Below are positions 32,793-47,594 of a DNA stretch of 64,000 nt, in pieces. The translations under genes were made by a program, and so were the position numbers. The notes under the pieces are model-generated. The model was not told where the DNA came from. It searched no databases and worked only from the letters and a program-made list of their open reading frames with translations. How positions within the stretch are numbered: position 1 is the first letter of the stretch; each line of letters opens with the position of its first letter. The DNA is taken from contig CAWBKB010000001.1 of the NCBI GenBank assembly GCA_963789265.1, positions 2,400,001-2,464,000 of the forward strand, given 5' to 3'. This stretch comes from an uncultured delta proteobacterium (lineage in GTDB: Bacteria > Desulfobacterota > Desulfomonilia > Desulfomonilales > Desulfomonilaceae).

Positions 32793-35700
32793 TTACAATT
32801 TCGCTTCCATCATTCGTTCGTGCAACCGCCGAGACTGCAAGGCGAATGCTTCCAATCTCGCTTCAATAATCTGAGGAAATGCATTCCCATCGGTTTCAAT
32901 AGCCAGAAACGGGAGTTTTTGATTCTTGTTCAACAAAGACTTCCGGCCACGGTCATGGCCGTTGGTTTGTGAAAGGAGGGCCAATTTCTCACCGGAAGTG
33001 AATTTTTCCGAGAGAATTGATTCAGCTACTCTGCTGGGCATACAACCGAACGGCCCGATAGAGATGATCCCGCATGCAGGATGAAGGATTTCGTGAAGGG
33101 CCGCGCCCACCGTCAGAATCGCCTCGCCAGTGAGCATCGGTGAAACGAATTTCTCCCCTGCGTGGATAAGATCCTCAACGTAAAGGGTCTCGTGAAAGAA
33201 CAGGCCCGACGGAGCAAACAGATGTCGAATCTTTCGGTCAAAATGCCGTTTCACAAAATACCGAATCCAGAAAGGAATGTCCGGCTGGCCTTCTATGCGA
33301 TTCTTTATGAGCCAATCGACATATTTTATCCATTCGCTGGTCTGAGAAGTTCGCACAATGAATCCACGGTCTGCCATCTTTTCAACCAGCTTCTGCAAAG
33401 AGATGGGATCATTTCGCACGTATATCTCGCCGATGAGCGAGATCTTTGGGATCTCCTCGTACGGCATCTTCAGAGGGATACCGGCCAACGTTTGAGCCGA
33501 GGATCGAATCTGAACGCGGATCTCTTTCCACGAACGATGGACGACTTGCACAAGAGAATCCCATTCACGATAAAATATCTCCAGAGCCGATTCCCGATCC
33601 GCGGCCGCGGCCATTAGCGTGGACCAGATCTCATACATCACGTCACCGATGATAATGGCCCGCCATGCGGGTAAAGTGAAACGATCTCCCAATCCCATAT
33701 ACCCGTTCGCCGAATTCAACGTGAGCACAGCCGCGTCGGGGATTTGGTATCTTTCGATGAGGCGACGAGAAAACACATTGTACTGGCCGAACCGGCACGG
33801 ACCACCCGCTCCGGGCATGAAATAGGCGGTCACTTCACCCGACGGCCTTTCACGCCAGAAATAGTTGAGCATAGACCCTACAGTGGTTTGGAGAGGTAAA
33901 CACTCTTTGCAGGTAGAGTTCCCGCGACCGATCTTGAGCACTTCATCGTCCGCAGGCGGCAGGCCATGAGCGTTAATCCCGACCTTCTTGAAGGTTTGGA
34001 CGAGCGCCTGATGAGCGAAGCGGCCCATTGCGGGCAAGACGACTCGGACATTGGGGTCGGTAAGGGCTAGCTTTCTCCCGTCAGCGGTAGCAACGACCGG
34101 TTTTCCATCGACGATTGCAGCGACCGCGGCCCGAAACTCTTTCCGGGTCGCGGGAAGTTGCTTCTTGCTTTCAAGCTCTACGTAGTACCTTACAATATCG
34201 AGAAAAGCCTCTATACGTGTTTCAAGTCCGGCGTCCGCGGTGTGACTGTCGAGTTCCAGAGTCAGCGAGGGCTTACGCCCCATTTCTTCTCGGAAATATC
34301 CCACCACGAAGGAGTCCGGTCCGCACGAAAAGTTGCTGATATAAGTCCCGAACAGCCTCGGGTGATTCTTGACGAACCGGGCAGCCTTCAGAATCATCCT
34401 GCCCATGGACCAGTACATAGTATCCTCGTCGTCGAAGGTTTGGTCTTCGTAGGGCAGCATGTCAAACGGTATTATCCGATAACCCCTTGACGCGAATTTA
34501 GCCGGTATGCCTTTGTTAGCCTCACCTGCGAAGGCATTGTAGGGTCGGCCGAAAAGTACGATTGCAAGGGCGTCGCGATCTTCTTCAAGCTCTTGCAGCA
34601 TTTTTGCGCCCGAAGCGCGCATCTCTTCTCTGCAAGCGGCCTGAGCCTCCAGCGCTTCCCTGAATGCCCGCAACCCATCGGCCCGCGAGCGACCCAACTC
34701 CAAAGCAACCTTGATAAATTCATCGGTTCTCGGTTCGAAACCTCGGCTAAGATCCAGATAAGGAGTGACCACCTTCTTGGACTGCAAGCGCTCAAAGGTA
34801 CTCTTCAGGTAAAAGGCTTCCCCTTGAACGAAAACGCAGGTACAGGTGTTGGCGTTCTCGCTGTCGGTGGGTACGCCTCTTATGTGCGGAAGAAAGAGTA
34901 TTTCAGGTTCCTTGTCCAGGAGGTTCGCCATGAACCCATGAGCTATTTCCACAGGGAAACAGAAAGCTGCACCCTGCTGATCGACCCCTGCCGCTTCTAC
35001 TGAGTCGGGCAATACCAACCGGTATCCCAGCGTCTTGAAAAAGGCATTAAAGAACGGGAAATAGGTATTTACGAGGAACGAACGGTTCATGCCGATTGTT
35101 GGCCGGTTATCCACCACGCCGGCGGCATCGAGATCGCGAAAAACGATTCTTTGGCGATGGTCCACCATGTCGAGGGCGCTCTTGTCGAATTCCAAGTGAC
35201 GGATAAGATTTACGTACCGGTTACAAGCACCGCCAAAGGGGTACGTTTTCCCCTCTATCTCAATCCGAGCAATTTCACACCTTCGGTCACATTTTTCTTT
35301 CCCGCCGCCGCACACAAAAGGGTTCTTGTAGACCACGTCACGAGCGGCCAGTCGGTTGAGGTCAAAAGAAGCCTCGTTCAGCAGTCCGACTGCAATTCGC
35401 CTTTCCACTTCGAGTGCCACCCCGAATGCGCCCATGAGTCCGGGTTCGGGTGGGACAACAATTTCTTTTCCGGTGAGCGCGGACATGGCCGCAGGAATTG
35501 CCTCGTTGTAGCAGACCCCGCCCTGCATAAAGACCTTTTTTCCAACCGGCCTATTGCCTTTGACTCGGTTCGAGTAATTCATGCAGATGGAATACACTAA
35601 GCCTGCTACGATATCGTTTACGGGGATCCCCTCCTGTGCTGCATTTTTTATGTCAGACCCTATGAAAGCGGCGCACTGATCGTTGAAGTTTGGAGGATTT

Positions 35701-37079
35701 TGGCCCGTATATGCCACCGAGCCGATGTCGGTAACTTTGAGCCCGAGACTCTCTTTAGCCGACTCCTCCAGGAATGAGCCCGTCCCAGCGCTGCACGCTT
35801 CATTCATTGCGTAGTCGCTGGGGACCCCGTTGGTAATGTACGTATATTTCGCATCCTGGCCCCCGATTTCGAAAATGGTATCCACCTGAGGGTCAAAGTG
35901 CACTGCCGCGGCGGCATGCGCTATGATCTCGTTGAGCACGCCGTCGGTCATTGCGTGAAGTCCGGAAATCTGCCGACCCGATCCGGTAACTCCCAATCCT
36001 ATGATGCTTATGGGGACATCAATCTGTTGGGCGAGGCTGCTGTAGACTTTCCGGGAAGCTCCAACCGGATCGCCGTCGGTTCGAAGGTAGTCGGCTGCCA
36101 GTATAGCCTTATCGCGGCAGCGCATGATTACCCCCTTGGTTGTAGTGGACCCCACATCCAGACCCAACACCGTGCGGTCGCCGGCTTCAGCTTTTCCCCG
36201 AGGCCGATCTTCGAAACGGACCATGTGCCGAAATTCCGACAAGGGCTTGAGGTATGAGAAGGCAGACCCTTTATTCTGATAGACATCATCGGGGCCGGTG
36301 TAAGGGACAGTAGGATTATCCAGAGCCCACAAAGCAGCCCCAAGTGCTTCAAAATAGGGAGACTCTTCGGGGATGTGAAGGTCTTCAATCTCCTTGGCGA
36401 GATAATGCATCATGGTCTGATTACGGGATGAACCGCCGACGAGAAGTACAGACTTCTTCGGCAGCTTTTTCAGCAACTCGACCACTTTGGCGGCCATCAT
36501 CTTGGCGAGGCCGGCCACCACCTGCCCCTTCGGGATGCCCTTGTTCAGAGCGTGAGTGCAGTCACTCTTGCAGAAGACGGAACACCGGCCCGAGACCTTG
36601 TGTGGGTGGTCGGATATTCCGAGCTTGGCCACGTCCTCAAGGGTAATGTTCATCCTCCGGATTTGTTGGAGAAAGAACTCACCTGTGCCGGAAGCGCATT
36701 TGTTACCGGTTTGTATTCCCTGGATTTGCCCGTCTTCATCCAGGTGGTACACGAGAAATGTCTCTCCTCCCGCGCTGACGACCACTCGATAAGAATCATC
36801 CTTGCCGAGTATATGTGCCACAGCTCTCTCGACTGCCTCGGGTTCGGATATGGTAGTCAACCTGATAAAATTAATGAATTTTCGTCCAGTGACTGCTATC
36901 GGGATGTCACGAGCTTGAGGGATCTCTTCAAGTGCATCGAGCAGGGTTTTCCTGGGGTTCCCCTCATGGGTGATCGTCGAGGCACCAATTACCTCGATCA
37001 CATCGTCATCCTTGCGCAGGCGCACCATGCCGAGCGTGGAGGCTCCCAAACAAATACCCAGAGCTTCCATGAGCAACAC
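32793..37079 (-). CDS. 2-hydroxyacyl-CoA dehydratase activase-like fusion (two BcrA/D-type ASKHA ATPase domains plus DUF2229)
   Basis: KCASGTG, CSVFCKSD, GLDVGSTTTK, EIGGQDAK, MNEACSAGTG, GRPYN, SCGPD, GPFGCMP. Confidence 0.88.
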   Translation of the reverse strand: MLLMEALGICLGASTLGMVRLRKDDDVIEVIGASTITHEGNPRKTLLDALEEIPQARDIPIAVTGRKFINFIRLTTISEPEAVERAVAHILGKDDSYRVVVSAGGETFLVYHLDEDGQIQGIQTGNKCASGTGEFFLQQIRRMNITLEDVAKLGISDHPHKVSGRCSVFCKSDCTHALNKGIPKGQVVAGLAKMMAAKVVELLKKLPKKSVLLVGGSSRNQTMMHYLAKEIEDLHIPEESPYFEALGAALWALDNPTVPYTGPDDVYQNKGSAFSYLKPLSEFRHMVRFEDRPRGKAEAGDRTVLGLDVGSTTTKGVIMRCRDKAILAADYLRTDGDPVGASRKVYSSLAQQIDVPISIIGLGVTGSGRQISGLHAMTDGVLNEIIAHAAAAVHFDPQVDTIFEIGGQDAKYTYITNGVPSDYAMNEACSAGTGSFLEESAKESLGLKVTDIGSVAYTGQNPPNFNDQCAAFIGSDIKNAAQEGIPVNDIVAGLVYSICMNYSNRVKGNRPVGKKVFMQGGVCYNEAIPAAMSALTGKEIVVPPEPGLMGAFGVALEVERRIAVGLLNEASFDLNRLAARDVVYKNPFVCGGGKEKCDRRCEIARIEIEGKTYPFGGACNRYVNLIRHLEFDKSALDMVDHRQRIVFRDLDAAGVVDNRPTIGMNRSFLVNTYFPFFNAFFKTLGYRLVLPDSVEAAGVDQQGAAFCFPVEIAHGFMANLLDKEPEILFLPHIRGVPTDSENANTCTCVFVQGEAFYLKSTFERLQSKKVVTPYLDLSRGFEPRTDEFIKVALELGRSRADGLRAFREALEAQAACREEMRASGAKMLQELEEDRDALAIVLFGRPYNAFAGEANKGIPAKFASRGYRIIPFDMLPYEDQTFDDEDTMYWSMGRMILKAARFVKNHPRLFGTYISNFSCGPDSFVVGYFREEMGRKPSLTLELDSHTADAGLETRIEAFLDIVRYYVELESKKQLPATRKEFRAAVAAIVDGKPVVATADGRKLALTDPNVRVVLPAMGRFAHQALVQTFKKVGINAHGLPPADDEVLKIGRGNSTCKECLPLQTTVGSMLNYFWRERPSGEVTAYFMPGAGGPCRFGQYNVFSRRLIERYQIPDAAVLTLNSANGYMGLGDRFTLPAWRAIIIGDVMYEIWSTLMAAAADRESALEIFYREWDSLVQVVHRSWKEIRVQIRSSAQTLAGIPLKMPYEEIPKISLIGEIYVRNDPISLQKLVEKMADRGFIVRTSQTSEWIKYVDWLIKNRIEGQPDIPFWIRYFVKRHFDRKIRHLFAPSGLFFHETLYVEDLIHAGEKFVSPMLTGEAILTVGAALHEILHPACGIISIGPFGCMPSRVAESILSEKFTSGEKLALLSQTNGHDRGRKSLLNKNQKLPFLAIETDGNAFPQIIEARLEAFALQSRRLHERMMEAKL

Positions 37080-37213: not shown

Positions 37214-37867
37214 TCAATGAAAGTACTCGTAAATCCCCAGCGTAATCAGAATCAACCCGGAAATTCGGCCGGCAAACTTTCCAAACCAATGCACGCCGGA
37301 ATATTGCCCGAACTCTATCCCAAACCAAATCGTGAGAATGCTAAGTGCCGCTGTGAATGCTACCATCAAGGCCACATCGAGTCTCAACAGGCCCGCGCCG
37401 ATCCCATTGCTCAAATTATTCAACGATAATGCCAGGGCCAGCAAGAATCCTTCCCTCAGGTCGATGTGCCCGGAAAAATCCGCGTCAGCGAGAAATGGAT
37501 GATCGAGAATCGCAAGCATCTTCCTGAGACCCGACTGATTGGAAAGCGTCGTCTCTTGAAACTGCTGGGGCCCATCGCTTTGTAACTCATCCCGTCGAGA
37601 AATCTCCTGAGCAAAGACCCAAACTCCTGTGCCTCCAATCATGAGAGCGCCCAGGGCAGTCGCCACATTTTGATTTATGAGGCGGCCTATTTCGTTGCCG
37701 GCGGCCATCGAAAGATAAGTTCCGAAAGATGTGACGATAGCAATAAGCAAATTAGCGTTGAAAGGGATATTTATCTTTCTGACTCCGTAGGACGTACCAA
37801 CTCCCACGTTATCAAGGTTGCTCGACAGGGCAAGCAAAAAGATAGAAATGATATGTAGATTGGTCAT
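37214..37867 (-). CDS. YtaF/MntP-family membrane protein
   Basis: LALSSNLDNVGVGTSYG and LALSLNNLSNGIGAG repeats; about 6 TM helices. Confidence 0.8.
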   Translation of the reverse strand: MTNLHIISIFLLALSSNLDNVGVGTSYGVRKINIPFNANLLIAIVTSFGTYLSMAAGNEIGRLINQNVATALGALMIGGTGVWVFAQEISRRDELQSDGPQQFQETTLSNQSGLRKMLAILDHPFLADADFSGHIDLREGFLLALALSLNNLSNGIGAGLLRLDVALMVAFTAALSILTIWFGIEFGQYSGVHWFGKFAGRISGLILITLGIYEYFH

Positions 37868-37884: not shown

Positions 37885-38298
37885 TTAGCCGGGCGCGCTG
37901 TCTTCGGTCTCGTCCTTCTTTGTGTCGGCCCTTTTTCTCTCTTTATGCTCTACTAATCTCGGTTTCGGATGTGCGTCAGCGCCCGCCCCTTGCGCAGGAC
38001 GTGCCTTTTCCGTCGCCTCCGATTCCTTTTCCTTGACCGCGCTCACTTTCCGAGCCGACGGTCGCTTCTCTTTGCTTACGGCCGCGGACCGCCCTTCCCT
38101 TCGGCCTTCGCAAACCTCCGCGCAAGTTTGCCGTCCCGTTTCGTACAGCAGGAACCCGCTCTTTAGAATCGCCTTTAGCAACGGCCTCACAGTGTACCAT
38201 GCCAACGGCACAACCACAGGCGCTGCGAGTAAACCGGCGCCGACTGCGACACCGGTCCAGATATCGCCACTCTTCGGTCTGAAATCCCAGATTGCCAT
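37885..38298 (-). CDS. DUF5132-like small membrane protein with basic tail
   Basis: WTGVAVGAGLLAAPVVVP...RPLLKAILKSG..LYE; paralogue of 44856-45122. Confidence 0.75.
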   Translation of the reverse strand: MAIWDFRPKSGDIWTGVAVGAGLLAAPVVVPLAWYTVRPLLKAILKSGFLLYETGRQTCAEVCEGRREGRSAAVSKEKRPSARKVSAVKEKESEATEKARPAQGAGADAHPKPRLVEHKERKRADTKKDETEDSAPG

Positions 38299-38383
38299 GT
38301 GCTGCCCCTCTCTACCGGACTGTTTTGGGCGCCACGACACCGCAATCAGGTATGCTATCAGACATAAGGCTGTCGTCAGCCGC

Positions 38384-38624: not shown

Positions 38625-38750
38625 GATGTTTCCCCATAAGGTCTGAGATGTGAGAGGCCCGCGCCGTAGCGATTTACCAGCCCCACGCGGCGCGCTGAGC
38701 CAGTCCTACCGCGTATATGCCGGGTATGCTGTACCTGCCGGCCAGGTCTA

Positions 38751-38841
38751 ATACCGATTCGCATTCAGAATCCCCCCGTCCCCCCTTTACTAAAGGAGGG
38801 TTAGAGGGGATTTTCTCACAATCTTGAAAGCGAATCGGTAT
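38751..38841. mobile_element. MITE-like element
   Basis: TIR ATACCGATTCGC(A/T)TTCA; encloses a cccccctttactaaaggaggg hairpin. Confidence 0.65.
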
Positions 38842-39008
38842 AAAACCGGACGAGCAGCCTTCCCGACGAAGAGTTGCTTTCCGGTCTTACCCCATTGTCG
38901 CCACAGTCCCTCGCCCCATGTAGACATTTTGCGGACCCCAACACGGCGTCGCAAGCCTAAGATCATGCAAAGACATGAAATCCTCAAAGAAGACTTCCAC
39001 ATTAAGAA

Positions 39009-39036
39009 TTAATTTGTTGCTAATACTAGCCTAACA
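39009..39036 (+). promoter_or_regulatory. 11-bp-periodic direct-repeat box
   Basis: TTAATT-N5-CTAATA-N5-CTAACA upstream of the 39130 gene. Confidence 0.45.
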
Positions 39037-39129
39037 TTTTGTCGGCATTAGTTTAAACAGATTCATACGACGAAATTCCTCGTCGTCCAAATAGTCGTAC
39101 TGCTGGTCAGAATCCAAAGGGAGAAAGGC

Positions 39130-39501
39130 ATGAGCTATTATCTCCACGACGTGCCGGGGCGTATGAGAATCCAGATTCCGGCGTTGAAGAGGAATTCCGA
39201 ACGGGCGCAAGATGTTCAGGAGCTGTTGGACAGCCTCTCGGGCGTCAAATCGACCTCCGTGAACCCTGTTACAGGGAGTGTGATAGTTCTTTACGATCCG
39301 CAAGTAGTGCATTCTTCGACCATTCTGACACTTCTTTCCAGGGAAAGGCACATTGACATCGCAAGAATAATCTCAAGCCGTCAACATCTCGAGGCTGGCC
39401 TTTCCAAGGCGGGCCGCGCAGCGTCCAAAGCCCTCATAGGTATCGCATTGGATCTAGCGTTAGAGGGTTCTCCCTTATCGATTCTCACAGCCTTCATTTA
39501 G
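39130..39501 (+). CDS. HMA2 (CoBaHMA-type) domain protein
   Basis: YLHDVPGRMRIQIP...NPVTGSVIVLYD; no CxxC; C-terminal hydrophobic helix. Confidence 0.8.
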   Translation: MSYYLHDVPGRMRIQIPALKRNSERAQDVQELLDSLSGVKSTSVNPVTGSVIVLYDPQVVHSSTILTLLSRERHIDIARIISSRQHLEAGLSKAGRAASKALIGIALDLALEGSPLSILTAFI

Positions 39502-39751
39502 AGTTTCCCGCTAAAATAGGCCGCACCTAAATTCGCTCCTTGTCCCCAATTCTCGAGCGGGCGCAGCATCCTGCGCCCCCACCTTCGTAACGTGACTGGC
39601 CTCTTGGTGGCGACGGGCATCTTGCCCGTCATTTCTAATGGACAGGCTGGAAGCCTGTCCCACCAATCTAAATTCGGTGCCAACTCTCTCGAAAACCACT
39701 ATAAACGAATTTCGATGCGGTCCGCGGTCGTTGATGAAACGCGCCGAGCAA

Positions 39752-40942
39752 CTACGACCTTAGTAGATCTGCTTTGTCGGTGGCCTCCCACGGCAAATCC
39801 ATATCTGTCCGTCCGAAATGCCCATACGCGGCAAGTTTGCGATAGAAGCCATCACTGGACATCGATGGTAGCTTTGTCAAATTGAATTGTCTGACAATCC
39901 CGCCTAGCCTGAAATCGAAATGCTTCTCCACAAGGGCACTGATTTTGTCATCGGAAAGCTTGCCCGTTCCCATAGTCTCAACCTGGATGCTGACCGGCCC
40001 TGAAAGTCCTATCGAATAGCTAAGCTGGACCTCGCACTGTTCGGCAAGCCCTGCGGCGACAACATTCTTGGCCGCGTAACGAGCTGCATACGCACCGACC
40101 CTGTCAATTCTTAACGCATCTTTTCCGCTCAGAGCCGATCCGCTGTTTCTGGAATAACCTCCGTAAGTGTCGATGGCATTCTTTCGACCTGTCAGTCCTG
40201 AGTGCACCGACGGCCCGCCCATTTTCAAAGGGCCTCCCGGATTGATCAGGATACTGGTGTTCCCGTCAGGGACTATAGGCTCACCCTCAAATGCCTCTTT
40301 TATGACCGTTTCCATCACATCGTCTCGAAGTCGGTCCAGTTTGGGATGGGTCCGATCTATCTGGCTTGAATTGATCGTGATACTGTGGATCCTGTGCGGA
40401 ATGCGATTGTCGTATTCGACTCCGACCTGGGTGGTGCCGTCAGGCGCCAAGTATGGCAATACGCCTTGCAGCCTCACCTCGGAGAGCCTCTTCGAAAGCT
40501 TGTGGGCAAGCCATATCGGAAGCGGCATAAGCGTCGGTGATTGATTGCAAGCAAAACCGAATAACGTTACCTGGTCGTATGCCACGACTCTATCTATGTC
40601 CTCTTCGGACACATCGTCTTCGGCAACCAGGCAGTGCTGCTCCGGCGTCATTTCTTTGAGGCTGGTCAATATGCTGCAAGTCTTGAAGTTGAATTCATGG
40701 TCAATGTACCCGATCCGCCGGATAACCTTTCTGGCCACATTAGGAAAATCGACCTTCACGCCGGATGCAAATCTTGCAGCAATGAACACCACTGACAGTG
40801 ACACTGCGCACTCGGCGATAACCCGGGCGCATAAGTCATGCTCGAGAAAACGGTCTATGATGGCATCGCTTATCTGATCGCACAGCTTGTCCGGGTGTCC
40901 TTCGGTGACCGATTCGGACGTGTGGATGAAGTGCTTTTTCAT
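39752..40942 (-). CDS. metK: Divergent methionine adenosyltransferase paralogue
   Basis: SESVTEGHPDK, GLTGRK..DTYG, SGKD..IDR, AAYGHFGR; several substrate-binding residues substituted; 4-bp overlap with the ATPase. Confidence 0.85.
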   Translation of the reverse strand: MKKHFIHTSESVTEGHPDKLCDQISDAIIDRFLEHDLCARVIAECAVSLSVVFIAARFASGVKVDFPNVARKVIRRIGYIDHEFNFKTCSILTSLKEMTPEQHCLVAEDDVSEEDIDRVVAYDQVTLFGFACNQSPTLMPLPIWLAHKLSKRLSEVRLQGVLPYLAPDGTTQVGVEYDNRIPHRIHSITINSSQIDRTHPKLDRLRDDVMETVIKEAFEGEPIVPDGNTSILINPGGPLKMGGPSVHSGLTGRKNAIDTYGGYSRNSGSALSGKDALRIDRVGAYAARYAAKNVVAAGLAEQCEVQLSYSIGLSGPVSIQVETMGTGKLSDDKISALVEKHFDFRLGGIVRQFNLTKLPSMSSDGFYRKLAAYGHFGRTDMDLPWEATDKADLLRS

Positions 40943-43900
40943 TTGTTGTCCGCCGATGTTTTTTTGGTGACTTCGTTTATGAGCAGAGGAACTACTGACG
41001 CAGCCCCGATTACCAACCCGTCAAAAAGTGTTATCGGGGTTGTGCCCAGCAGTGTTCTCAGCCCGGGAACAAGCTGAGAAGCCAGTTGCAGCCCGAGTGA
41101 GCCAACGACCGCCACATTAAGATATTTATTCGGCGCGGATTTCCGGCGATCGAAGATGGTGCGCGTCTCTGAACGACAACTCACGGCGTGCAGGATCTGA
41201 GACGTGGTAAGGCTTTGAAATGCCAACGTACCCGCGGCCGGGCCCATGCCGTATTTCATAACACCGTATCCGTACGCGGCAAGCGAAGTCGCGGTCATCG
41301 TCGCAGCCTCGAAGCCAATTCTCTTGAAGTCGTTTGTCTTCACAATAGGCGCGGTGGAATCCCGCGGCGGGTGACTCATTACGTCAGGTTCCGCAGGTTC
41401 CAAAGCCAAGGCAAGTCCCGGGAATATGTCCGATACAAGGTTGATCCAGAGCAGTTGCATGGCATTAAGAGGGTATCCCAGTCCTAGAGCGCCTGCGACA
41501 AACATTACTTGGATTTCGCTGAAGTTGGTGGCAAGAAGATATCGGAGCGTCTTTCTGATATTATTGTAAATTGTTCGCCCATCACTTATCGCGATGATCA
41601 AGGTCTCCAGGTCGTCTTCTTCAAGCACCACATCAGCCACGTCTCGAGCCACATCAGTTCCAGCCCGCCCCATTGCTATACCAATGTCCGCGGCCTTGAG
41701 TGCAGGCCCGTCGTTAATGCCGTCGCCGGTCATGGCCACCACCTTGCCGGAACTCTGAAGGGCCTGAACAATCTGGAGCTTATTCGACGGGCTGACCCTG
41801 GAAAAGACGTGGACCTCCTTGCTCAGAGCTTTTAATACCGCAGGCTCGGTGGTTGTCAGGTGTGTCGAATCCAGGATTTCCAGCGGCCTGCCGTTGCTGA
41901 GCCCCAATTCCTTTCCCACAGCATACGCGGTCGGGCTCTGGTCTCCGGTGACCATCACAGTTTCCAGCCCCGCTTCATGAAACACCACTATGGATTCTTT
42001 GACTCGATTCCGGATAGGGTCGGCCATGCCGACCAGGCCCAACCAAGTGAAGCCATTCTCTGTCTCCGAGTGCTCATCGGAATTCCGGACGGCGAACGCG
42101 ACCCCCAGCACCCGCAATGCATTGCCGGCCATATTGTCATTTTCGGCTTCGACAATGTCTCTGTCCTTATCGGTAAGCGCGATGGCAGCCCCATTCCGGA
42201 TCTGATATTTGCACTTGGCGAGGACTTCTACGGGATTCCCCTTCAAAGCCACCAATACTTCCTTATCCGCGTATACGTGTTCAGTAACCATGAATTGGCG
42301 ATCATCGGACCGATACTGAATATTCAACACCGGATGTTGATCCCTTAGTGCCCGAACGTCAATGCCGCCGTTAATCGCCATGTAGATCAGAGCGTTTTCG
42401 GTTGGGGAGCCATTCAAAACGTACTGCCGATCTCTGAACTCGATTTGAGTCTCATTGCAGAGCACGCATATATGAATGAGTTTCAAGACCTCGTCGGACT
42501 GGGAGGGGTCAAATAGCTTTTCGCGGCTATAGAAGCTATTTTCACTTATCCGTATCTTCTCCATCCCGGAATAAATCGTCAGCACGGTCATTCGGTTATG
42601 GGTAATTGTGCCGGTTTTATCGAAACATATCGTCTGGACCGAGCCTAGCGTACAGATTGCATCGAGATTCCTTATGAGGACTTTGTGCTTCCTCATATTA
42701 TTGATCCCAAGCGCAAGCGTGGTCGTCGCAACAGCCGGCAGTCCTTCGGGAACTGCCGCGACGGCAAGAGAGATGGCTGTCTTGAGCATCTGAAGAAAGC
42801 CGTTCCCCCTGATGAGCCCCATAAAGAAAACTAACCCGCAGACGGCCCCGGAGATCAATACCAGTTGGTTGCCGATCTTCGTCAACTGTCGCTCTACGGG
42901 GGTTTCCGGGGCTTCGGCTTCAGCAAGAAGACTTTGGATCTTGCCTACTTCCGAGAACATGCCGATTGCTACGACAACCGCCAACCCCTGGCCCCCGGTG
43001 ATGAGCGTGCCCGAATAAACCATGTTGGTCCGGTCCGCGAGGGGAACCTTGGGGCCCTTAAGCGGAGATGAATTCTTGGACACCGGCATGCTTTCACCGG
43101 TGAGCACCGACTCGTCCACGGTAAGACGGGTTGCCTCGATAATTCTCGCGTCCCCTGTCACATACGTCCCTGGTTTCAGCAAAAGGATATCCCCCACGAG
43201 GACCTGTTCCGCGGGGATTTCCTGCAAACTGCCTTCCCGTATTACCTGTGCGGTTGGGCGGATCAACCTCTTCAACGAGCTTATTGTCTTTTCCGCTTCA
43301 TTTTCCGTAACAAAGCCGATTGCCGCGTTAATGCCCACCACAACCACAATTATGACGGCATCCGCAAGCCCCCCAGTAACCACGGAAAGACCGGCAGCCG
43401 CAGCCAGGAGCGCGACCGGGAAAGAGTTGAATTGATCGAAGAAAATGCCCAGCTTGGAGCGAGACAGAGGCTCGGGAAGAACATTAAGGCCGTATTCGCG
43501 GCGATTTTCCTGGGAGGCTTGGGCTGACAAGCCTCGTTTTCTGGAGGATTTCAGCGATGAAAGGACGAATTTCACATTGAGCAGGTGCCAGGGTTTAGAC
43601 TTATGAGCTTTGGAGAGGCCATACTCCGGCCGATCTTTCCCGGTGCGAACAACCCTGAGATCGGTTACAACGGCGAGTGCACCGACTTCAGTAGAGCCGG
43701 GGCCGCCCTTGGCCTCGTTATCCCTGGTCTCTCGCAGATAGGCTATCACAACACTCTCCACGCTCAGGGCTATCTTGCGAGGATTACAGTCAGGATTGAA
43801 AATTACCAGCACGTTTCCGGTCAAAATGTTGGCCGAAACGCGCCTGACGTCTTCGTCCTGCGGGAGTAACATTTCCAAGCGGTATTTGAGTGACACGCAT

Positions 43901-43965
43901 CGATAGAGGCCTTCGACTTTGTATCGCACTCTGCCCGGAATATGGTTATGAACTGTTTCTAACAA
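40939..43965 (-). CDS. P2A-type (Ca2+/Mn2+-like) P-type ATPase with N-terminal HMA2 domain
   Basis: HNHIPGRVR N-terminus; LTGES, VPEGLP, DKTGT, TGDGINDGPAL, TNFSE, QLLWINLVSD. Confidence 0.92.
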   Translation of the reverse strand: MLETVHNHIPGRVRYKVEGLYRCVSLKYRLEMLLPQDEDVRRVSANILTGNVLVIFNPDCNPRKIALSVESVVIAYLRETRDNEAKGGPGSTEVGALAVVTDLRVVRTGKDRPEYGLSKAHKSKPWHLLNVKFVLSSLKSSRKRGLSAQASQENRREYGLNVLPEPLSRSKLGIFFDQFNSFPVALLAAAAGLSVVTGGLADAVIIVVVVGINAAIGFVTENEAEKTISSLKRLIRPTAQVIREGSLQEIPAEQVLVGDILLLKPGTYVTGDARIIEATRLTVDESVLTGESMPVSKNSSPLKGPKVPLADRTNMVYSGTLITGGQGLAVVVAIGMFSEVGKIQSLLAEAEAPETPVERQLTKIGNQLVLISGAVCGLVFFMGLIRGNGFLQMLKTAISLAVAAVPEGLPAVATTTLALGINNMRKHKVLIRNLDAICTLGSVQTICFDKTGTITHNRMTVLTIYSGMEKIRISENSFYSREKLFDPSQSDEVLKLIHICVLCNETQIEFRDRQYVLNGSPTENALIYMAINGGIDVRALRDQHPVLNIQYRSDDRQFMVTEHVYADKEVLVALKGNPVEVLAKCKYQIRNGAAIALTDKDRDIVEAENDNMAGNALRVLGVAFAVRNSDEHSETENGFTWLGLVGMADPIRNRVKESIVVFHEAGLETVMVTGDQSPTAYAVGKELGLSNGRPLEILDSTHLTTTEPAVLKALSKEVHVFSRVSPSNKLQIVQALQSSGKVVAMTGDGINDGPALKAADIGIAMGRAGTDVARDVADVVLEEDDLETLIIAISDGRTIYNNIRKTLRYLLATNFSEIQVMFVAGALGLGYPLNAMQLLWINLVSDIFPGLALALEPAEPDVMSHPPRDSTAPIVKTNDFKRIGFEAATMTATSLAAYGYGVMKYGMGPAAGTLAFQSLTTSQILHAVSCRSETRTIFDRRKSAPNKYLNVAVVGSLGLQLASQLVPGLRTLLGTTPITLFDGLVIGAASVVPLLINEVTKKTSADNK

Positions 43966-44061
43966 CTGATTAGCCTTGTCTCGGCGGGCTCGCCCTACCT
44001 CATGAAAACGCGAGACGCCTGCTTTAGTCCTCTACTAGTTCTGGTTCCCAGGTTGTGCCAT

Positions 44062-44233
44062 ATAGGGGCTAACTTAACGATTTCCCCCCCTTCGTAAAGG
44101 GGGGTTAGGGGGGATGTTTGTCTAACTCCTTGAAAATCCCCCCTAATCCCTCTTTAGAAAGGAGGGACTTTGATGGCCCTTAGCCCGTTGGACCTCTTCA
44201 GAGATATCGAGATGCTCTTAAGTTAGCACCTAT
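44062..44233. mobile_element. MITE-like element between REP-type arms
   Basis: TIR ATAGG(G/T)GCTAACTTAA; flanked by gttcccaggttgtgcc and ggcagagcccgggaac. Confidence 0.65.
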
Positions 44234-44305: not shown

Positions 44306-44827
44306 TCAATCTCCATTTGCATCGTCCGCTTCCAATGCAAAGTCTTCCCCTTCGTCCCACTCCTCAATCTGTGCTCGCGTGAATACGCCCAACGCGTAAT
44401 AAAATGCCGTGTACCATGCAGGCATGACAATATTTCCTCGTGCAATCTGCCAGACTCCGGAAATTACCAGGCTGAGAAAAATGAGACTGGGAATATCGAC
44501 TTCGCCGCCGGTCGCATTCTTAAGATATCTATTATACACTTGAAACGTATCGGCTACATTGGTGAAAAGAGGCTTCTGTGGCCGTCCGGAGCGTCCCAAA
44601 ACAAACAGCTCGTTTTCTCTCGCAAAGTCAGCGATGGTCTTTCTTTCGCCTTCGTAGGAAATCAGGGCGCTTCCTATGTTAGGATTCACCCTGATTTCCT
44701 TTACCCCGGGGCAGCCGGAAAGCCGCTCCATCAAATTAGAAAAATATGAGACATCCCTTCTCTTAGAAGGAATCTTGATTCTTAGCCTGCGGGCCATCCG
44801 ATGAGACACATGAGCCTTCGGAATCAT
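44306..44827 (-). CDS. HMA2 (CoBaHMA-type) domain membrane protein
   Basis: VSHRMARRLRIKIP...NPNIGSALISYE; two C-terminal hydrophobic segments (TGGEVDIP, PAWYTAFYYA); acidic tail. Confidence 0.8.
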   Translation of the reverse strand: MIPKAHVSHRMARRLRIKIPSKRRDVSYFSNLMERLSGCPGVKEIRVNPNIGSALISYEGERKTIADFARENELFVLGRSGRPQKPLFTNVADTFQVYNRYLKNATGGEVDIPSLIFLSLVISGVWQIARGNIVMPAWYTAFYYALGVFTRAQIEEWDEGEDFALEADDANGD

Positions 44828-44855: not shown

Positions 44856-45122
44856 CTAAGCTCCTTTTGTCTTCGCCGGAGTCAGCTCAGCCTGCACTTC
44901 AGACTTCGCTTCGGCAGCCAGATCTTCTACTACCTCTGCGACCTCGGCAATCATTTCTCTGCATTTTTCGTAGAGCATTAAGCTGCCCTTTATGCCCGCC
45001 TTTGCAACCGGCCTTGCCGCGGTGGCTATCATCGGAATTACCACGGGGGCTACGAGTAAGCCCACCCCGATCGCGACGCCAGTCCACACACTGCCTTTAG
45101 GTGTGAAATTCCAACTGGCCAT
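44856..45122 (-). CDS. DUF5132-like small membrane protein
   Basis: WTGVAIGVGLLVAPVVIP...RPVAKAGIKG..LYE...EDLAAEAKSE; GGAGG RBS. Confidence 0.8.
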   Translation of the reverse strand: MASWNFTPKGSVWTGVAIGVGLLVAPVVIPMIATAARPVAKAGIKGSLMLYEKCREMIAEVAEVVEDLAAEAKSEVQAELTPAKTKGA

Positions 45123-45205
45123 TTGACGCCTCCTTCTTTCCGATCGTTCGGTAGGTCATCAACCTACTATAATAGCGTAAATCATTTCCCAGATTATGTC
45201 TATTT

Positions 45206-45233
45206 TGTTAGCTTATCATTAGCATTGTGTTAA
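45206..45233 (-). promoter_or_regulatory. 11-bp-periodic direct-repeat box
   Basis: Minus strand TTAACA-N5-CTAATG-N5-CTAACA upstream of the 45122 gene. Confidence 0.55.
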
Positions 45234-45365: not shown

Positions 45366-45404
45366 TTAACACCTTTTTAACATTTGTCTAATCGTAGCTC
45401 AACA
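45366..45404 (+). promoter_or_regulatory. Pho-box-like 11-bp-periodic repeats
   Basis: TTAACA (45366), TTAACA (45377), CTAATC (45388), TCAACA (45399), facing phoB-phoU. Confidence 0.55.
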
Positions 45405-45971
45405 ATCTTTGTTGAGAATGACTTCGCGGATTAATTCTCCCCGGCGGACAAAGGACGATTTACCGCACGGCCCCCCACAACTGTTAATCGACGGCTGAGC
45501 GGGATCGGTGTCTCTTCCGGCCACCGGGGTCTCCTCGACTCGGAGCATTTTTTCGAGAGCGGCGGCATAAGGTCCCCGCACTGCATTGCCCCTTGGCTCG
45601 CTGCCTTCGTATCCCCGGGGAAACGCATACTCGGCGCGCGAGGGAGATATTTGTTTTGTTCGCAATGACCAGGAGGAAATATAACTTGAATCTCCATACT
45701 TCTAGCCGAGATTTCGGCATTGTGCCTCTAATAGATCGCGATATTGCACTAGGGGAGTCCACGGAGATTCGACAAGTTCGTCGCTGTACAGACTTTGACG
45801 TATCGATAGAGATTCGTCTGTTGGTTAGCTTGTGATGACGGTAGGGAGGTCGGCGGGCTCGCCATCCCGTCAGCCAGTGGTGGTGAGCCCCCTCCCAATC
45901 CACTGCCGGCCTCCCAACATTTCTGGCTTTCCAAACACGTGTAATGCAAGGCAGAGAACAAGCGGGTGTGA

Positions 45972-46661
45972 ATGGCCAAAGAAAAAGTTCTAGTCGTCGA
46001 TGACGACGAAGATATCTTAGAGCTGGTAACGTACAATCTGACAAAGGAAGGGTATCACGTTTCTTCAGTTCTTTCCGGGGAACAGGCTTTAAAGAAGGCA
46101 AAGGAGGAACACCCTGACGCAATACTGCTCGACCTCATGCTGCCCGGGGTAGATGGCCTGGATGTCTGCCGGGAATTGAAGAACGATCCTGCTACCAGGT
46201 ACATACCCGTTCTGATGGTAACCGCAAAAGGAGAGGATGCCGACATAGTCAGCGGCCTGGAATTGGGTGCGGACGATTACATCACCAAACCTTTCAGCCC
46301 CCGAGTCCTTTTGGCCCGCCTGAAAACCGTTCTACGGCGGAACAAGCCTCAAGAGTCTGAAGAGCTCGCGGTCGTGAACCTGCACGGCCTCACCATCGAT
46401 CCTAACCGTCACCAGGTCCTCCTTGAGAGGATGCCCATCGTTCTCACCACCACGGAGTTCAGGATCCTTCATTTTCTGGCGCGGCGCCCCGGTCGAGTCT
46501 TCAGCCGAGACCAGATAATAAACGCGGTGAAGGGGGAGAATTATGCTGTAACGGAGCGCTCTGTCGACGTACAAATTGTTAGTCTGAGAAAGAAGCTCGG
46601 CAGGTTTGGAGACGCGATAGAGACGGTCAGAGGGGTGGGCTATAGGGTGAAAGAGGAGTAG
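45972..46661 (+). CDS. phoB: OmpR/PhoB-family response regulator
   Basis: VVDDD, LLDLMLP, GADDYITKPFSPR, ERSVDVQI, IETVRGVGY; next to phoU. Confidence 0.8.
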   Translation: MAKEKVLVVDDDEDILELVTYNLTKEGYHVSSVLSGEQALKKAKEEHPDAILLDLMLPGVDGLDVCRELKNDPATRYIPVLMVTAKGEDADIVSGLELGADDYITKPFSPRVLLARLKTVLRRNKPQESEELAVVNLHGLTIDPNRHQVLLERMPIVLTTTEFRILHFLARRPGRVFSRDQIINAVKGENYAVTERSVDVQIVSLRKKLGRFGDAIETVRGVGYRVKEE

Positions 46662-46880: not shown

Positions 46881-47594
46881 ATGAGGATAAGACTGCAGAA
46901 GGACATTGACAGGTTGAAAGAGAGGATTGTTTCACTAGGGACTCTGGTGGAAGAGCACTTTCGCGTGGCGATCAAAGCCATCCAAAATCTGGATGCCCAG
47001 TTGGCCAAGACTGTCATTGATGGTGATATAGAGGTTGATCGGCTGGAGATTGATGTTGAGGAGGATTGCCTGAAGATTCTGGCCCTTCACCAGCCCGTTG
47101 CAGACCAGTTGCGGTATATAGTGGCGATACTGAAGATGAACAATGATTTGGAACGAATAGGGGATTTAGCTGTCAATATTGCCGAGCAAGCGGAAGCTAT
47201 CGCTCGCGACGAGCGACAGGTCTTAGCATTTGACTATCTGACCATGGGACAGAAGGCCGAGGAAATGCTGAAGAAGAGCCTCGATTCCCTCATAAATACC
47301 GATCTTCGCTTGGCTTACGAGGTATTGAGCCGAGACGACGACGTTGATGCCATGAAAAATGCGATCGAGGCCCAGTTCGCGCAGGAGATGTGCAAGTCCA
47401 AGGGAGATCCTGCATCCCTGATCAACTTGTTCCTGGTCTCACGTCATCTCGAACGCATAGCCGACCATGCCACCAACATTGCGGAAGACGTGATATATCT
47501 GATCACAGGCGAGATCCACAGGCACCGAGGAGCGGTGGTCATACGAGGCAGCGATAGCTGGTTTAGTAAATCGGACGAGCACGAACTGGGCTGA
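46881..47594 (+). CDS. phoU: Phosphate signalling protein PhoU
   Basis: ALHQPVADQLR, DLERIGDLAVNIA, HLERIADHATNIAEDVIY. Confidence 0.93.
   Translation: MRIRLQKDIDRLKERIVSLGTLVEEHFRVAIKAIQNLDAQLAKTVIDGDIEVDRLEIDVEEDCLKILALHQPVADQLRYIVAILKMNNDLERIGDLAVNIAEQAEAIARDERQVLAFDYLTMGQKAEEMLKKSLDSLINTDLRLAYEVLSRDDDVDAMKNAIEAQFAQEMCKSKGDPASLINLFLVSRHLERIADHATNIAEDVIYLITGEIHRHRGAVVIRGSDSWFSKSDEHELG

Follow-up and report, generated by a model that had tools for sequence, protein, structure and literature searches.

A MetK paralogue with an altered substrate site is coupled to a CoBaHMA-headed P2A-type cation pump

Results

A metK-like gene behind a cation pump gene

We analysed a stretch of 64,000 nucleotides (hereafter the window) from an uncultured delta proteobacterium of the family Desulfomonilaceae (assembly GCA_963789265.1, contig CAWBKB010000001.1, positions 2,400,001 to 2,464,000), with a focus on a gene for a paralogue of MetK, the S-adenosylmethionine (AdoMet) synthetase. 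We refer to this paralogue as MetKL. Its gene follows that of a P2A-type cation ATPase, in a module that also encodes CoBaHMA (HMA_2) and DUF5132-like proteins and that lies next to genes for a PhoB-like response regulator and PhoU (Table 1). The first-pass annotation of this DNA had given neither the strand nor the CoBaHMA and DUF5132-like genes, the Pho-box-like arrays and the neighbouring phoB-phoU pair.

Table 1. Genes and sequence features of the MetKL module and its surroundings; positions are those of the window.
Feature	Position	Strand	Remarks
Second DUF5132-like small membrane protein	37885..38340	minus	likely true start is an internal ATG giving MAIWDF...
Pho-box-like array	38998..39040	plus	TTAATTT/CTAATAC/CTAACAT, spaced at 11 bases, about 90-130 nt before the convergent CoBaHMA gene
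Second CoBaHMA (HMA_2) protein	39130..39501	plus	123 aa; convergent with MetKL
Terminator-like G+C hairpin	39612..39630	plus	between MetKL and the convergent CoBaHMA gene
MetK-like paralogue (MetKL)	39752..40942	minus (40942->39752)	396 aa; MAT fold with most triphosphate/Mg ligands retained; substitutions at the methionine and adenine contacts
P2A-type (SPCA/LMCA1/SERCA-like) cation ATPase	40939..43965	minus	1008 aa, TTG start; N-terminal CoBaHMA-like (HMA_2) domain with PGRxR motif
CoBaHMA (HMA_2) protein	44306..44827	minus	173 aa, C-terminal hydrophobic segment; upstream gene of the module
Small DUF5132-like membrane protein	44856..45122	minus	88 aa; probable first gene of the module; paralogue of the open reading frame at 37885-38340
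Pho-box-like array	45194..45233	minus	four 7-mers (TTAACAC/CTAATGA/CTAACAA/GACATAA), 11-base spacing, 111 nt upstream of the first module gene
Second Pho-box-like array	45366..45405	plus	toward phoB-phoU, about 600 nt upstream of phoB; assignment uncertain
PhoB-like response regulator	45972..46661	plus	best NCBIfam match TIGR02154, 260.6 bits, below the cut-off of 296.2; divergent from the module
PhoU	46881..47594	plus	TIGR02135, 194.5 bits, cut-off 130.25

The stop codon of the ATPase gene (TGA) and the start codon of MetKL share the four bases ATGA at 40939-40942, within AACAAATGAAAAAG / AAATGAAA, as the first-pass annotation had stated. Because the MetKL ATG overlaps the ATPase TGA, the pump gene is the upstream one and MetKL the downstream one, and MetKL is translationally coupled to the CoBaHMA-headed P2A cation pump. 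The pump matched the Pfam domains E1-E2_ATPase, Cation_ATPase_N, Cation_ATPase_C and Hydrolase, and it carries the motifs DKTGT, PEGLP and TGDGINDGPALK. On NCBIfam it remained below every equivalog cut-off (623.5 against 798.3 for the PMR1 type and 537.6 against 703.4 for the SERCA type), and its best relatives of solved structure were human SPCA1 (480 bits) and Listeria LMCA1 (465 bits). Read against SERCA, its M5 contains an N...E pair and its M6 the sequence N..SD. The extra domain at its N-terminus, of about 125 residues, gave a weak match to HMA_2 (21.7 bits, cut-off 30), and the PGRxR...LTGN motif of this domain was kept in all MetKL-linked pumps examined.

Next, we looked at gene order around relatives of MetKL. 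The sample consisted of the best 80 loci of 173 MetKL relatives, 60 of them MetKL-type (at least 51% identity) and 20 canonical (43-49%). A pump gene was found directly upstream and on the same strand at 56 of the 60 MetKL loci, or 56 of the 58 that could be assessed, since two of the misses were contig ends (L022 and L080); at the other two, MetKL was truncated (L048) or was a second copy (L007). No pump was found at any of the 20 canonical metK loci. The same 4-base overlap occurred in 20 of the 56 pump-MetKL loci, and five had gaps of 145-301 bases, values that are approximate because they were computed from tblastn ends. In a reverse search, all 15 close relatives of the pump had a MetKL match directly downstream (12 near full length and 3 partial), and nine of these 15 contigs were new relative to the MetKL locus set. 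MetKL is almost always partnered with one pump subfamily.

The second copy at L007 (5442-6814, 7001-8194) lies on the same contig as L006. It has no pump, an IS3-family transposase gene (rve, HTH_Tnp_1) stands immediately upstream of it, and the convergent CoBaHMA gene is kept.

We also considered natural ATPase-MetKL fusions and rejected them. Of 171 longer hits, only three (P0127, P0128 and P0217) joined the two proteins, all of them singletons and each shorter than the two proteins together. P0217 consists of ATPase residues 1-844 joined to MetKL 175-396, and P0127 of ATPase residues 250-809 followed by MetKL starting at residue 3, with the junction in a short stretch of similarity (RKT.HF); both are internal-deletion chimeras. 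P0128 is a pump-MetKL reading frame known from a single record, a Richelia (cyanobacterial) metagenome-assembled genome (MAG). All three are probably deletions or mis-assemblies.

MetKL keeps the fold of methionine adenosyltransferases

MetKL matched all three S-AdoMet_synt Pfam domains, with E-values of 2.8e-32, 7.5e-34 and 3.2e-56 for the N, M and C domains. Its score on the MetK model TIGR01034 was 376.1 bits (equivalog cut-off 309.4), which is 210 bits lower than that of the canonical copy of the same genome (586.7 bits). The nearest solved structures were ordinary methionine adenosyltransferases (MATs) at about 40-44% identity. An AlphaFold2 model built from an alignment of 33 relatives had a predicted local distance difference test score (pLDDT) of 81.5 and a predicted template modelling score (pTM) of 0.82, with pLDDT below 50 only at residues 248-273, the triphosphate loop. 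The top Foldseek matches of this model were all MATs, with template modelling (TM) scores of 0.84-0.88, and no solved structure from the MetKL clade was among the structure matches. MetKL keeps an intact MAT fold.

The methionine and adenine contacts are replaced

To describe the active site we use the numbering of mature E. coli MetK, with the K-12 protein from NC_000913.3 as the reference. According to PMC3853416, His14 is the catalytic acid and Phe230 stacks on adenine; Asp163 and Asp238 bind the ribose hydroxyls, Asp238 and Glu55 the methionine amino group, and Gln98 and Lys269 the carboxylate; and the carbonyl of Arg229 binds the adenine amino group.

The window protein was aligned with MAFFT to E. 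coli MetK, to the second metK copy of its own genome and to relatives. The first-pass annotation had listed H14, D16, E42, D118, D163, R244, K245, K265 and D271 as retained, and all are present in this alignment. The substitutions it had named are there as well: E55R (GGEIT to AARFA), GAGDQG to VAYDQV, K165T, R229P, F230L, D238H (GDCG to VHSG) and K269R. The change that it had placed in the Q98 loop also holds, the alignment giving QSPDI to MTPEQ. The methionine-contact positions 55, 98, 238 and 269, which are E, Q, D and K in MetK, thus read R, M, H and R in the window protein, the adenine-contact positions 230 and 227 read L and G, and position 99 of the gating loop is T.

A larger alignment held 196 sequences, 175 MetKL and 21 canonical, grouped by identity to the query and not by motif; some sites were counted in the 167 of the 175 MetKL that carry R55/H238. 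D238H, F262L and K269R were each found in 175/175 MetKL relatives, and position 55 was R in 167, K in 7 (Chloroflexota rows) and M in 1 (a Nitrospirae row). We called a position a clade-wide switch when one residue was fixed in 90% or more of MetKL and another in 85% or more of canonical sequences; by this rule C41A, T43C, T58S, V270I, P337L and I350F were further switches. All 175 MetKL, and none of the canonical sequences, carry seven extra residues (LPSxxKGG) ahead of FY in the C-terminal domain. The new cysteines were considered as a candidate metal site, but C41A together with T43C looks like a shift of a cysteine along one face of a strand.

Seven of the eight triphosphate, Mg and K ligands (H14, D16, E42, R244, K245, K265 and D271) were each kept in at least 165 of the 167 relatives, K165 being the exception. 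Seventy near-invariant positions were common to MetKL and canonical sequences, among them H14, D16, E42, D163, Q167, R244, K245, D249, K265, D271 and R272. Around the nucleoside, position 230 was L in 113/167, T227 had become G, D, E or Y, position 99 was also variable, and I302 was kept in 148/167. In the GAGDQG signature, Q119 was kept in 165/167 and G115, G117 and G120 were replaced, so that the clade has the form xAxDQV. The gating loop (Q98/S99/I102) and the GAGD motif were variable across MetKL, in a region (98-120) within which the alignment is uncertain.

Judged from these alignments, the residue changes that recur in the 175 relatives and set them against the 21 canonical sequences are more than chance. 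The metal, triphosphate and dimer-interface residues appear to be under constraint, and the methionine and adenine half of the site has been replaced in a fixed manner. We also asked if an acidic gating loop might serve as a Ca sensor, and rejected this idea: the median net charge of the loop is -6 in both MetKL and canonical MetK.

MetKL forms a separate clade beside canonical MetK

A word-indexed protein search with MetKL returned at least 120 clusters at 66-94% identity. Those with names are annotated as methionine adenosyltransferase and come from Desulfomonilaceae, Nitrospirota and 'Deltaproteobacteria'. By record titles, carriers belong to Thermodesulfobacteriota, Nitrospirota, Chloroflexota and Methylococcaceae, with one Mycobacteriaceae (actinobacterial) MAG, and span at least five phyla; a Richelia (cyanobacterial) record is among the longer MetKL hits. 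Methylococcales carriers include Methylobacter and Methylomonas. Among the cultured carriers are Methylomonas rivi WSC-6, Methylotetracoccus oryzae C50C1 and Desulforhabdus sp. TSK.

The first-pass annotation had proposed a phylogeny, and a search for a canonical metK elsewhere in the genome, as checks on its claims. In a quick IQ-TREE tree of 84 rows, for which only support by the Shimodaira-Hasegawa approximate likelihood ratio test (SH-aLRT) was computed and no root was inferred, a branch with SH-aLRT 100 and a stem length of 0.5+0.14 separated the 58 MetKL rows from all others. The canonical copies from six carrier genomes grouped with canonical MetK. MetKL is a separate clade, and it is one tied to P2A-type ATPases. 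The window genome also has a canonical metK (G000:C7:162799-163938), the 586.7-bit copy mentioned above. The same was true of all five other carriers tested, in which the canonical copies scored 498-623 bits on TIGR01034 against 340-389 bits for their own MetKL.

Within the window's order, MetKL (at least 64% identity) was found in 44 of 70 genomes, and 42 of these 44 also showed a canonical match at 40-46%. In G049 (81% complete), which does not carry MetKL, a TIGR01034 search found no metK at all. Canonical metK was thus 'missing' in 2/44 carriers and in 1/26 non-carriers, and the similar rates make assembly gaps a plausible cause. The two carriers concerned, G073 and G035, may offer a test in nature of the ability of MetKL to stand in for MetK. 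Over the same genome pairs, identity was 52-67% for MetKL and 51-67% for canonical MetK; conservation of MetKL is roughly equal to that of the housekeeping copy, which indicates strong purifying selection.

Four genomes (G027, G032, G048 and G050) have two MetKL copies each, at 68-87% identity to the query. In four others (G011, G026, G033 and G055) MetKL is split by a stop or lies in two pieces, possibly through assembly error or decay.

Pho-box-like arrays flank the module

The array in front of the first module gene is similar to those that precede the two pstS genes of the same genome. We scanned the genome for four CTAACA-like hexamers at 11-base spacing, scored out of 24, and found scores of at least 17/24 at only 26 of about 12.1 million positions. 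Two of the 26 lie in the module intergenic region (at the module promoter and at the phoB-side site), two at pstS-C3, one beside pstS on C1, and three in front of genes for a PHP-domain protein and for a glycosyltransferase that contains such a domain. The better evidence is that arrays recur at the same places. A scan of 60 loci, 6 of them duplicates, at a threshold of at least 16/24 found two kinds of array, each in 17 distinct loci: one on the module strand, 0.1-1.5 kb ahead of the pump gene, and one on the opposite strand, shortly before the convergent CoBaHMA gene, where the window has its array at 38998-39040. Many of the array-bearing loci are close kin and so do not count as independent. 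From these arrays we infer membership of the module in the phosphate-starvation (Pho) regulon of the window genome.

The glycosyltransferase hit (G000:C1:678283-678294; L119 90-2474 (-)) lies upstream of a gene for a 794-aa protein with an N-terminal PHP domain, and a similar large GT4 protein adjoins the module in L011, L018 and L045. The PHP-domain glycosyltransferase may act in phosphate-sparing remodelling of lipids or glycans.

Discussion

What MetKL may do

The first-pass annotation considered MetKL to be probably not a canonical SAM (AdoMet) synthetase. We find a canonical role very unlikely, since E55, Q98, D238, K269 and F230 are all replaced and the replacements are fixed across a multi-phylum clade. 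Its further suggestion, that MetKL supplies phosphate to the coupled ATPase, finds no support here; P-type pumps are normally phosphorylated by ATP.

Canonical E. coli MetK has a tripolyphosphatase activity that is stimulated by AdoMet. In MetKL the two acids that hold the amino group have become basic (E55R and D238H) and K269 remains basic as Arg, which would turn the pocket beside the alpha-phosphate from an amino-acid site into a cationic one. Mutants of known MATs offer a comparison. In PMC6850014, which gives the human equivalents of MAT active-site residues and describes the K165 equivalent as catalytic, gating-loop mutants of E. coli MAT and the human disease mutants D258G and K289N are reported to lose SAM synthesis with phosphatase activity unaffected. 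MetKL is altered at the same positions (D238, K269 and the loop) and most of its residues for binding inorganic tripolyphosphate (PPPi) are intact; unlike those laboratory and disease mutants, it is a natural family under purifying selection, with substitutions that reverse charge and are not simply null. Because MAT mutants at these positions keep PPPi hydrolysis, we read MetKL as a candidate for an AdoMet-independent hydrolase, or binder, of triphosphate or oligophosphate.

The reading that we favour, and hold tentatively, is that MetKL is a SAM-independent hydrolase or binder of triphosphate or polyphosphate that works with the pump under phosphate starvation. It would be a neofunctionalised member of the MAT fold without SAM synthesis. 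It would bind a Mg-triphosphate moiety, either PPPi itself or the end of a polyphosphate or nucleotide, and would hydrolyse that moiety without AdoMet, the new Arg and His placing positive charge where AdoMet or methionine otherwise sits. Condensed-phosphate stores would then release phosphate while the pump removes the accompanying divalent cation (Ca2+ or Mn2+). The residue pattern is consistent with a tri- or polyphosphatase role. We regard as unlikely, taken as a whole, a more specific version of the scheme, in which Arg55 and His238 replace the sulfonium ligand and so convert the MAT fold to an AdoMet-independent tri-/polyphosphate hydrolase, the soluble arm of a Pho-starvation machine (a CoBaHMA-headed Ca-type pump with CoBaHMA and DUF5132-like proteins) that mobilises calcium-polyphosphate while the pump expels the cation.

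Several observations count against a SAM-independent phosphohydrolase of this kind. MetKL passes the TIGR01034 equivalog cut-off. K165 is T in the window protein and T125/K35 among the 167 relatives, and D118 varies there as well (D80/N34/E29/H18). The ribose ligand D163 is kept in 165/167 and an F or Y stands at position 230 in 50/167, so a nucleoside may still bind MetKL. Two carriers, G073 (99% complete, about 390 contigs) and G035 (76% complete), showed only a MetKL-type match to TIGR01034. The genes ppk and ppx are absent among the conserved neighbours of MetKL loci. As to Pho control, the array consensus was derived by eye from the pstS-C3 and module promoters, which makes those hits circular and leaves only the pstS-C1 and PHP hits as independent. 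In Methylococcales, none of 14 loci has a Pho box of the E. coli type in front of the module: their 176,902 bases gave two hits of at least 12/14, both of them elsewhere, and shuffled sequences averaged 0.75. We therefore propose Pho control only for loci of the Desulfobacterota and Nitrospirota type.

A possible but less likely explanation is that MetKL is a regulatory subunit, non-catalytic or ligand-sensing, whose site binds ATP, PPPi or polyphosphate and which gates or scaffolds the pump. Soluble regulators do likewise for other P2/P3 pumps. The near-exclusive linkage with one pump subfamily and the translational coupling fit this explanation, as do the clade-specific surface insertion LPSxxKGG, the loss of the catalytic K165 in most members, and partner genes whose products, small membrane proteins and CoBaHMA proteins, are likely to be regulatory. 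However, pseudoenzymes usually lose their catalytic residues, whereas H14, D16, K245, K265 and D271 are kept in 175 sequences from at least five phyla, and the ATPase-MetKL 'fusions' came to only three singletons, both of those inspected being internal-deletion chimeras.

We consider it doubtful that MetKL is a nucleosidyl (adenosyl) transferase, in which a different anionic acceptor would attack C5' of a nucleoside triphosphate to give a new 5'-deoxynucleosyl compound and PPPi. In favour of it, MetKL retains H14 as catalytic acid, D163 as ribose ligand, I302 and most of the triphosphate site, and the charge reversal by E55R and D238H, with K269R still basic, looks like re-specification and not like decay. 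But the adenine contacts are degraded at positions 227 and 230, conservation is lacking in the gating loop, which positions the acceptor, and no biosynthetic or acceptor-supplying genes are conserved nearby. S99 is variable too; its equivalent is described as essential in PMC6850014, where S114A of human MAT2A keeps 2.5% activity.

That MetKL is simply a SAM synthetase isozyme expressed under phosphate starvation seems highly improbable: its TIGR01034 score above the cut-off, the database name methionine adenosyltransferase, the lack of another metK in G073 and G035, and the tolerance of Q98 loss by itself (human Q113A retains about 76% activity according to PMC6850014) would fit, but the four methionine contacts, the adenine stack and GAGDQG are all replaced together and the replacements fixed, a canonical copy is kept in 42/44 carriers of the order with a similar 'missing' rate in non-carriers, and the clade scores well below the canonical copies of the same genomes.

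Relation to known proteins and gene clusters

Bacterial MetK (EC 2.5.1.6; TIGR01034; PF00438/PF02772/PF02773; PDB 1FUG/1P7L/7LL3) shares with MetKL the three-domain fold at 40-44% identity, the GHPDK, GLTGRK, SGKD and DR motifs, the E42-R244 pair, and most of the triphosphate and Mg ligands. MetKL differs from it by E55R, D238H, K269R, F262L, F230L and R229P, by a Q98/S99/I102 loop that is not conserved and by the 7-residue insertion, and in being a second copy beside canonical metK, almost always behind a P-type pump. The pump is closest to the P2A Ca2+/Mn2+ ATPases (human SPCA1, 7YAG; Listeria LMCA1, 6ZHF; SERCA1a), with which it shares the core motifs. Unlike them, it has an extra N-terminal CoBaHMA-like domain, a dedicated MetK-like partner and equivalog scores below the cut-offs, and its transport of Ca2+ or Mn2+ is putative.

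Gaschignard et al. (2024) may list CoBaHMA-ATPase architectures. The HMA_2 family (PF19991) is the CoBaHMA family according to passages of bioRxiv 10.1101/2024.07.07.602159. In the same passages, the ccyA (calcyanin) neighbourhood of Microcystis resembles the module in having CoBaHMA and DUF5132 proteins; unlike the module, it comes with no mention of 'adenosylmethionine', 'metK' or 'P-type' in that portion of the text, and the MetKL module for its part has no calcyanin. A connection with carbonate biomineralisation through calcyanin in methanotrophs was considered and rejected: bioRxiv 10.64898/2025.12.07.689555 names Methylococcus as the methanotrophs that bear ccyA, and no overlap was seen with the methanotroph carriers of MetKL, Methylobacter and Methylomonas.

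Our literature searches on MetK/MAT paralogues found no description of one linked to a P-type ATPase, and the gene module around MetKL appears to be undescribed. MetK belongs to the best-conserved enzymes known, and it is commonly regarded as having a single function. A widespread sister family with a re-charged site would represent a new activity on the MAT fold. The database name 'methionine adenosyltransferase' is probably wrong for MetKL, and it inflates metK copy counts. The partnership of MetKL with the calcium-type pump and with CoBaHMA and DUF5132-like proteins, together with the Pho-box-like arrays, suggests a testable link between phosphate starvation and the handling of divalent cations. 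It may also provide a first functional handle on CoBaHMA proteins, which have so far been discussed mainly around cyanobacterial calcium-carbonate biomineralisation.

Other neighbours of the module

Beyond the pump, MetKL and CoBaHMA, no neighbour was common to more than 11 of the 60 MetKL loci. In 5-6 loci of the Desulfomonilaceae type, the module is next to genes for parts of a phosphonate-type ABC transporter and for a PtxD-like 2-hydroxyacid dehydrogenase; in 7 loci, mostly of Methylobacter, it is next to a gene for a Na_Ca_ex protein.

In the window, the second DUF5132-like gene is directly followed by a gene for a membrane protein (37214-37867, minus strand) that matches NCBIfam YtaF at 154.6 bits (cut-off 149.6) and Pfam MntP; such a protein adjoined the module in none of 80 related loci. 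Further downstream on the same strand, a 1428-aa protein (32793-37079) contains two BcrAD/BadFG ATPase stretches and DUF2229, of the CoA-enzyme activase type, and has no evident link to the module.

A palindromic, G+C-rich dispersed element is present in two copies in the window, at 44060-44200, between the CoBaHMA gene and the ATPase gene, and at 38740-38840. The former occupies much of the 340-base gap inside the module. The core of the element, CCCCCTTTAC[G/T]AA, occurs 32 times in the genome, and the element looks like a repetitive extragenic palindromic (REP) element or a miniature inverted-repeat transposable element (MITE).

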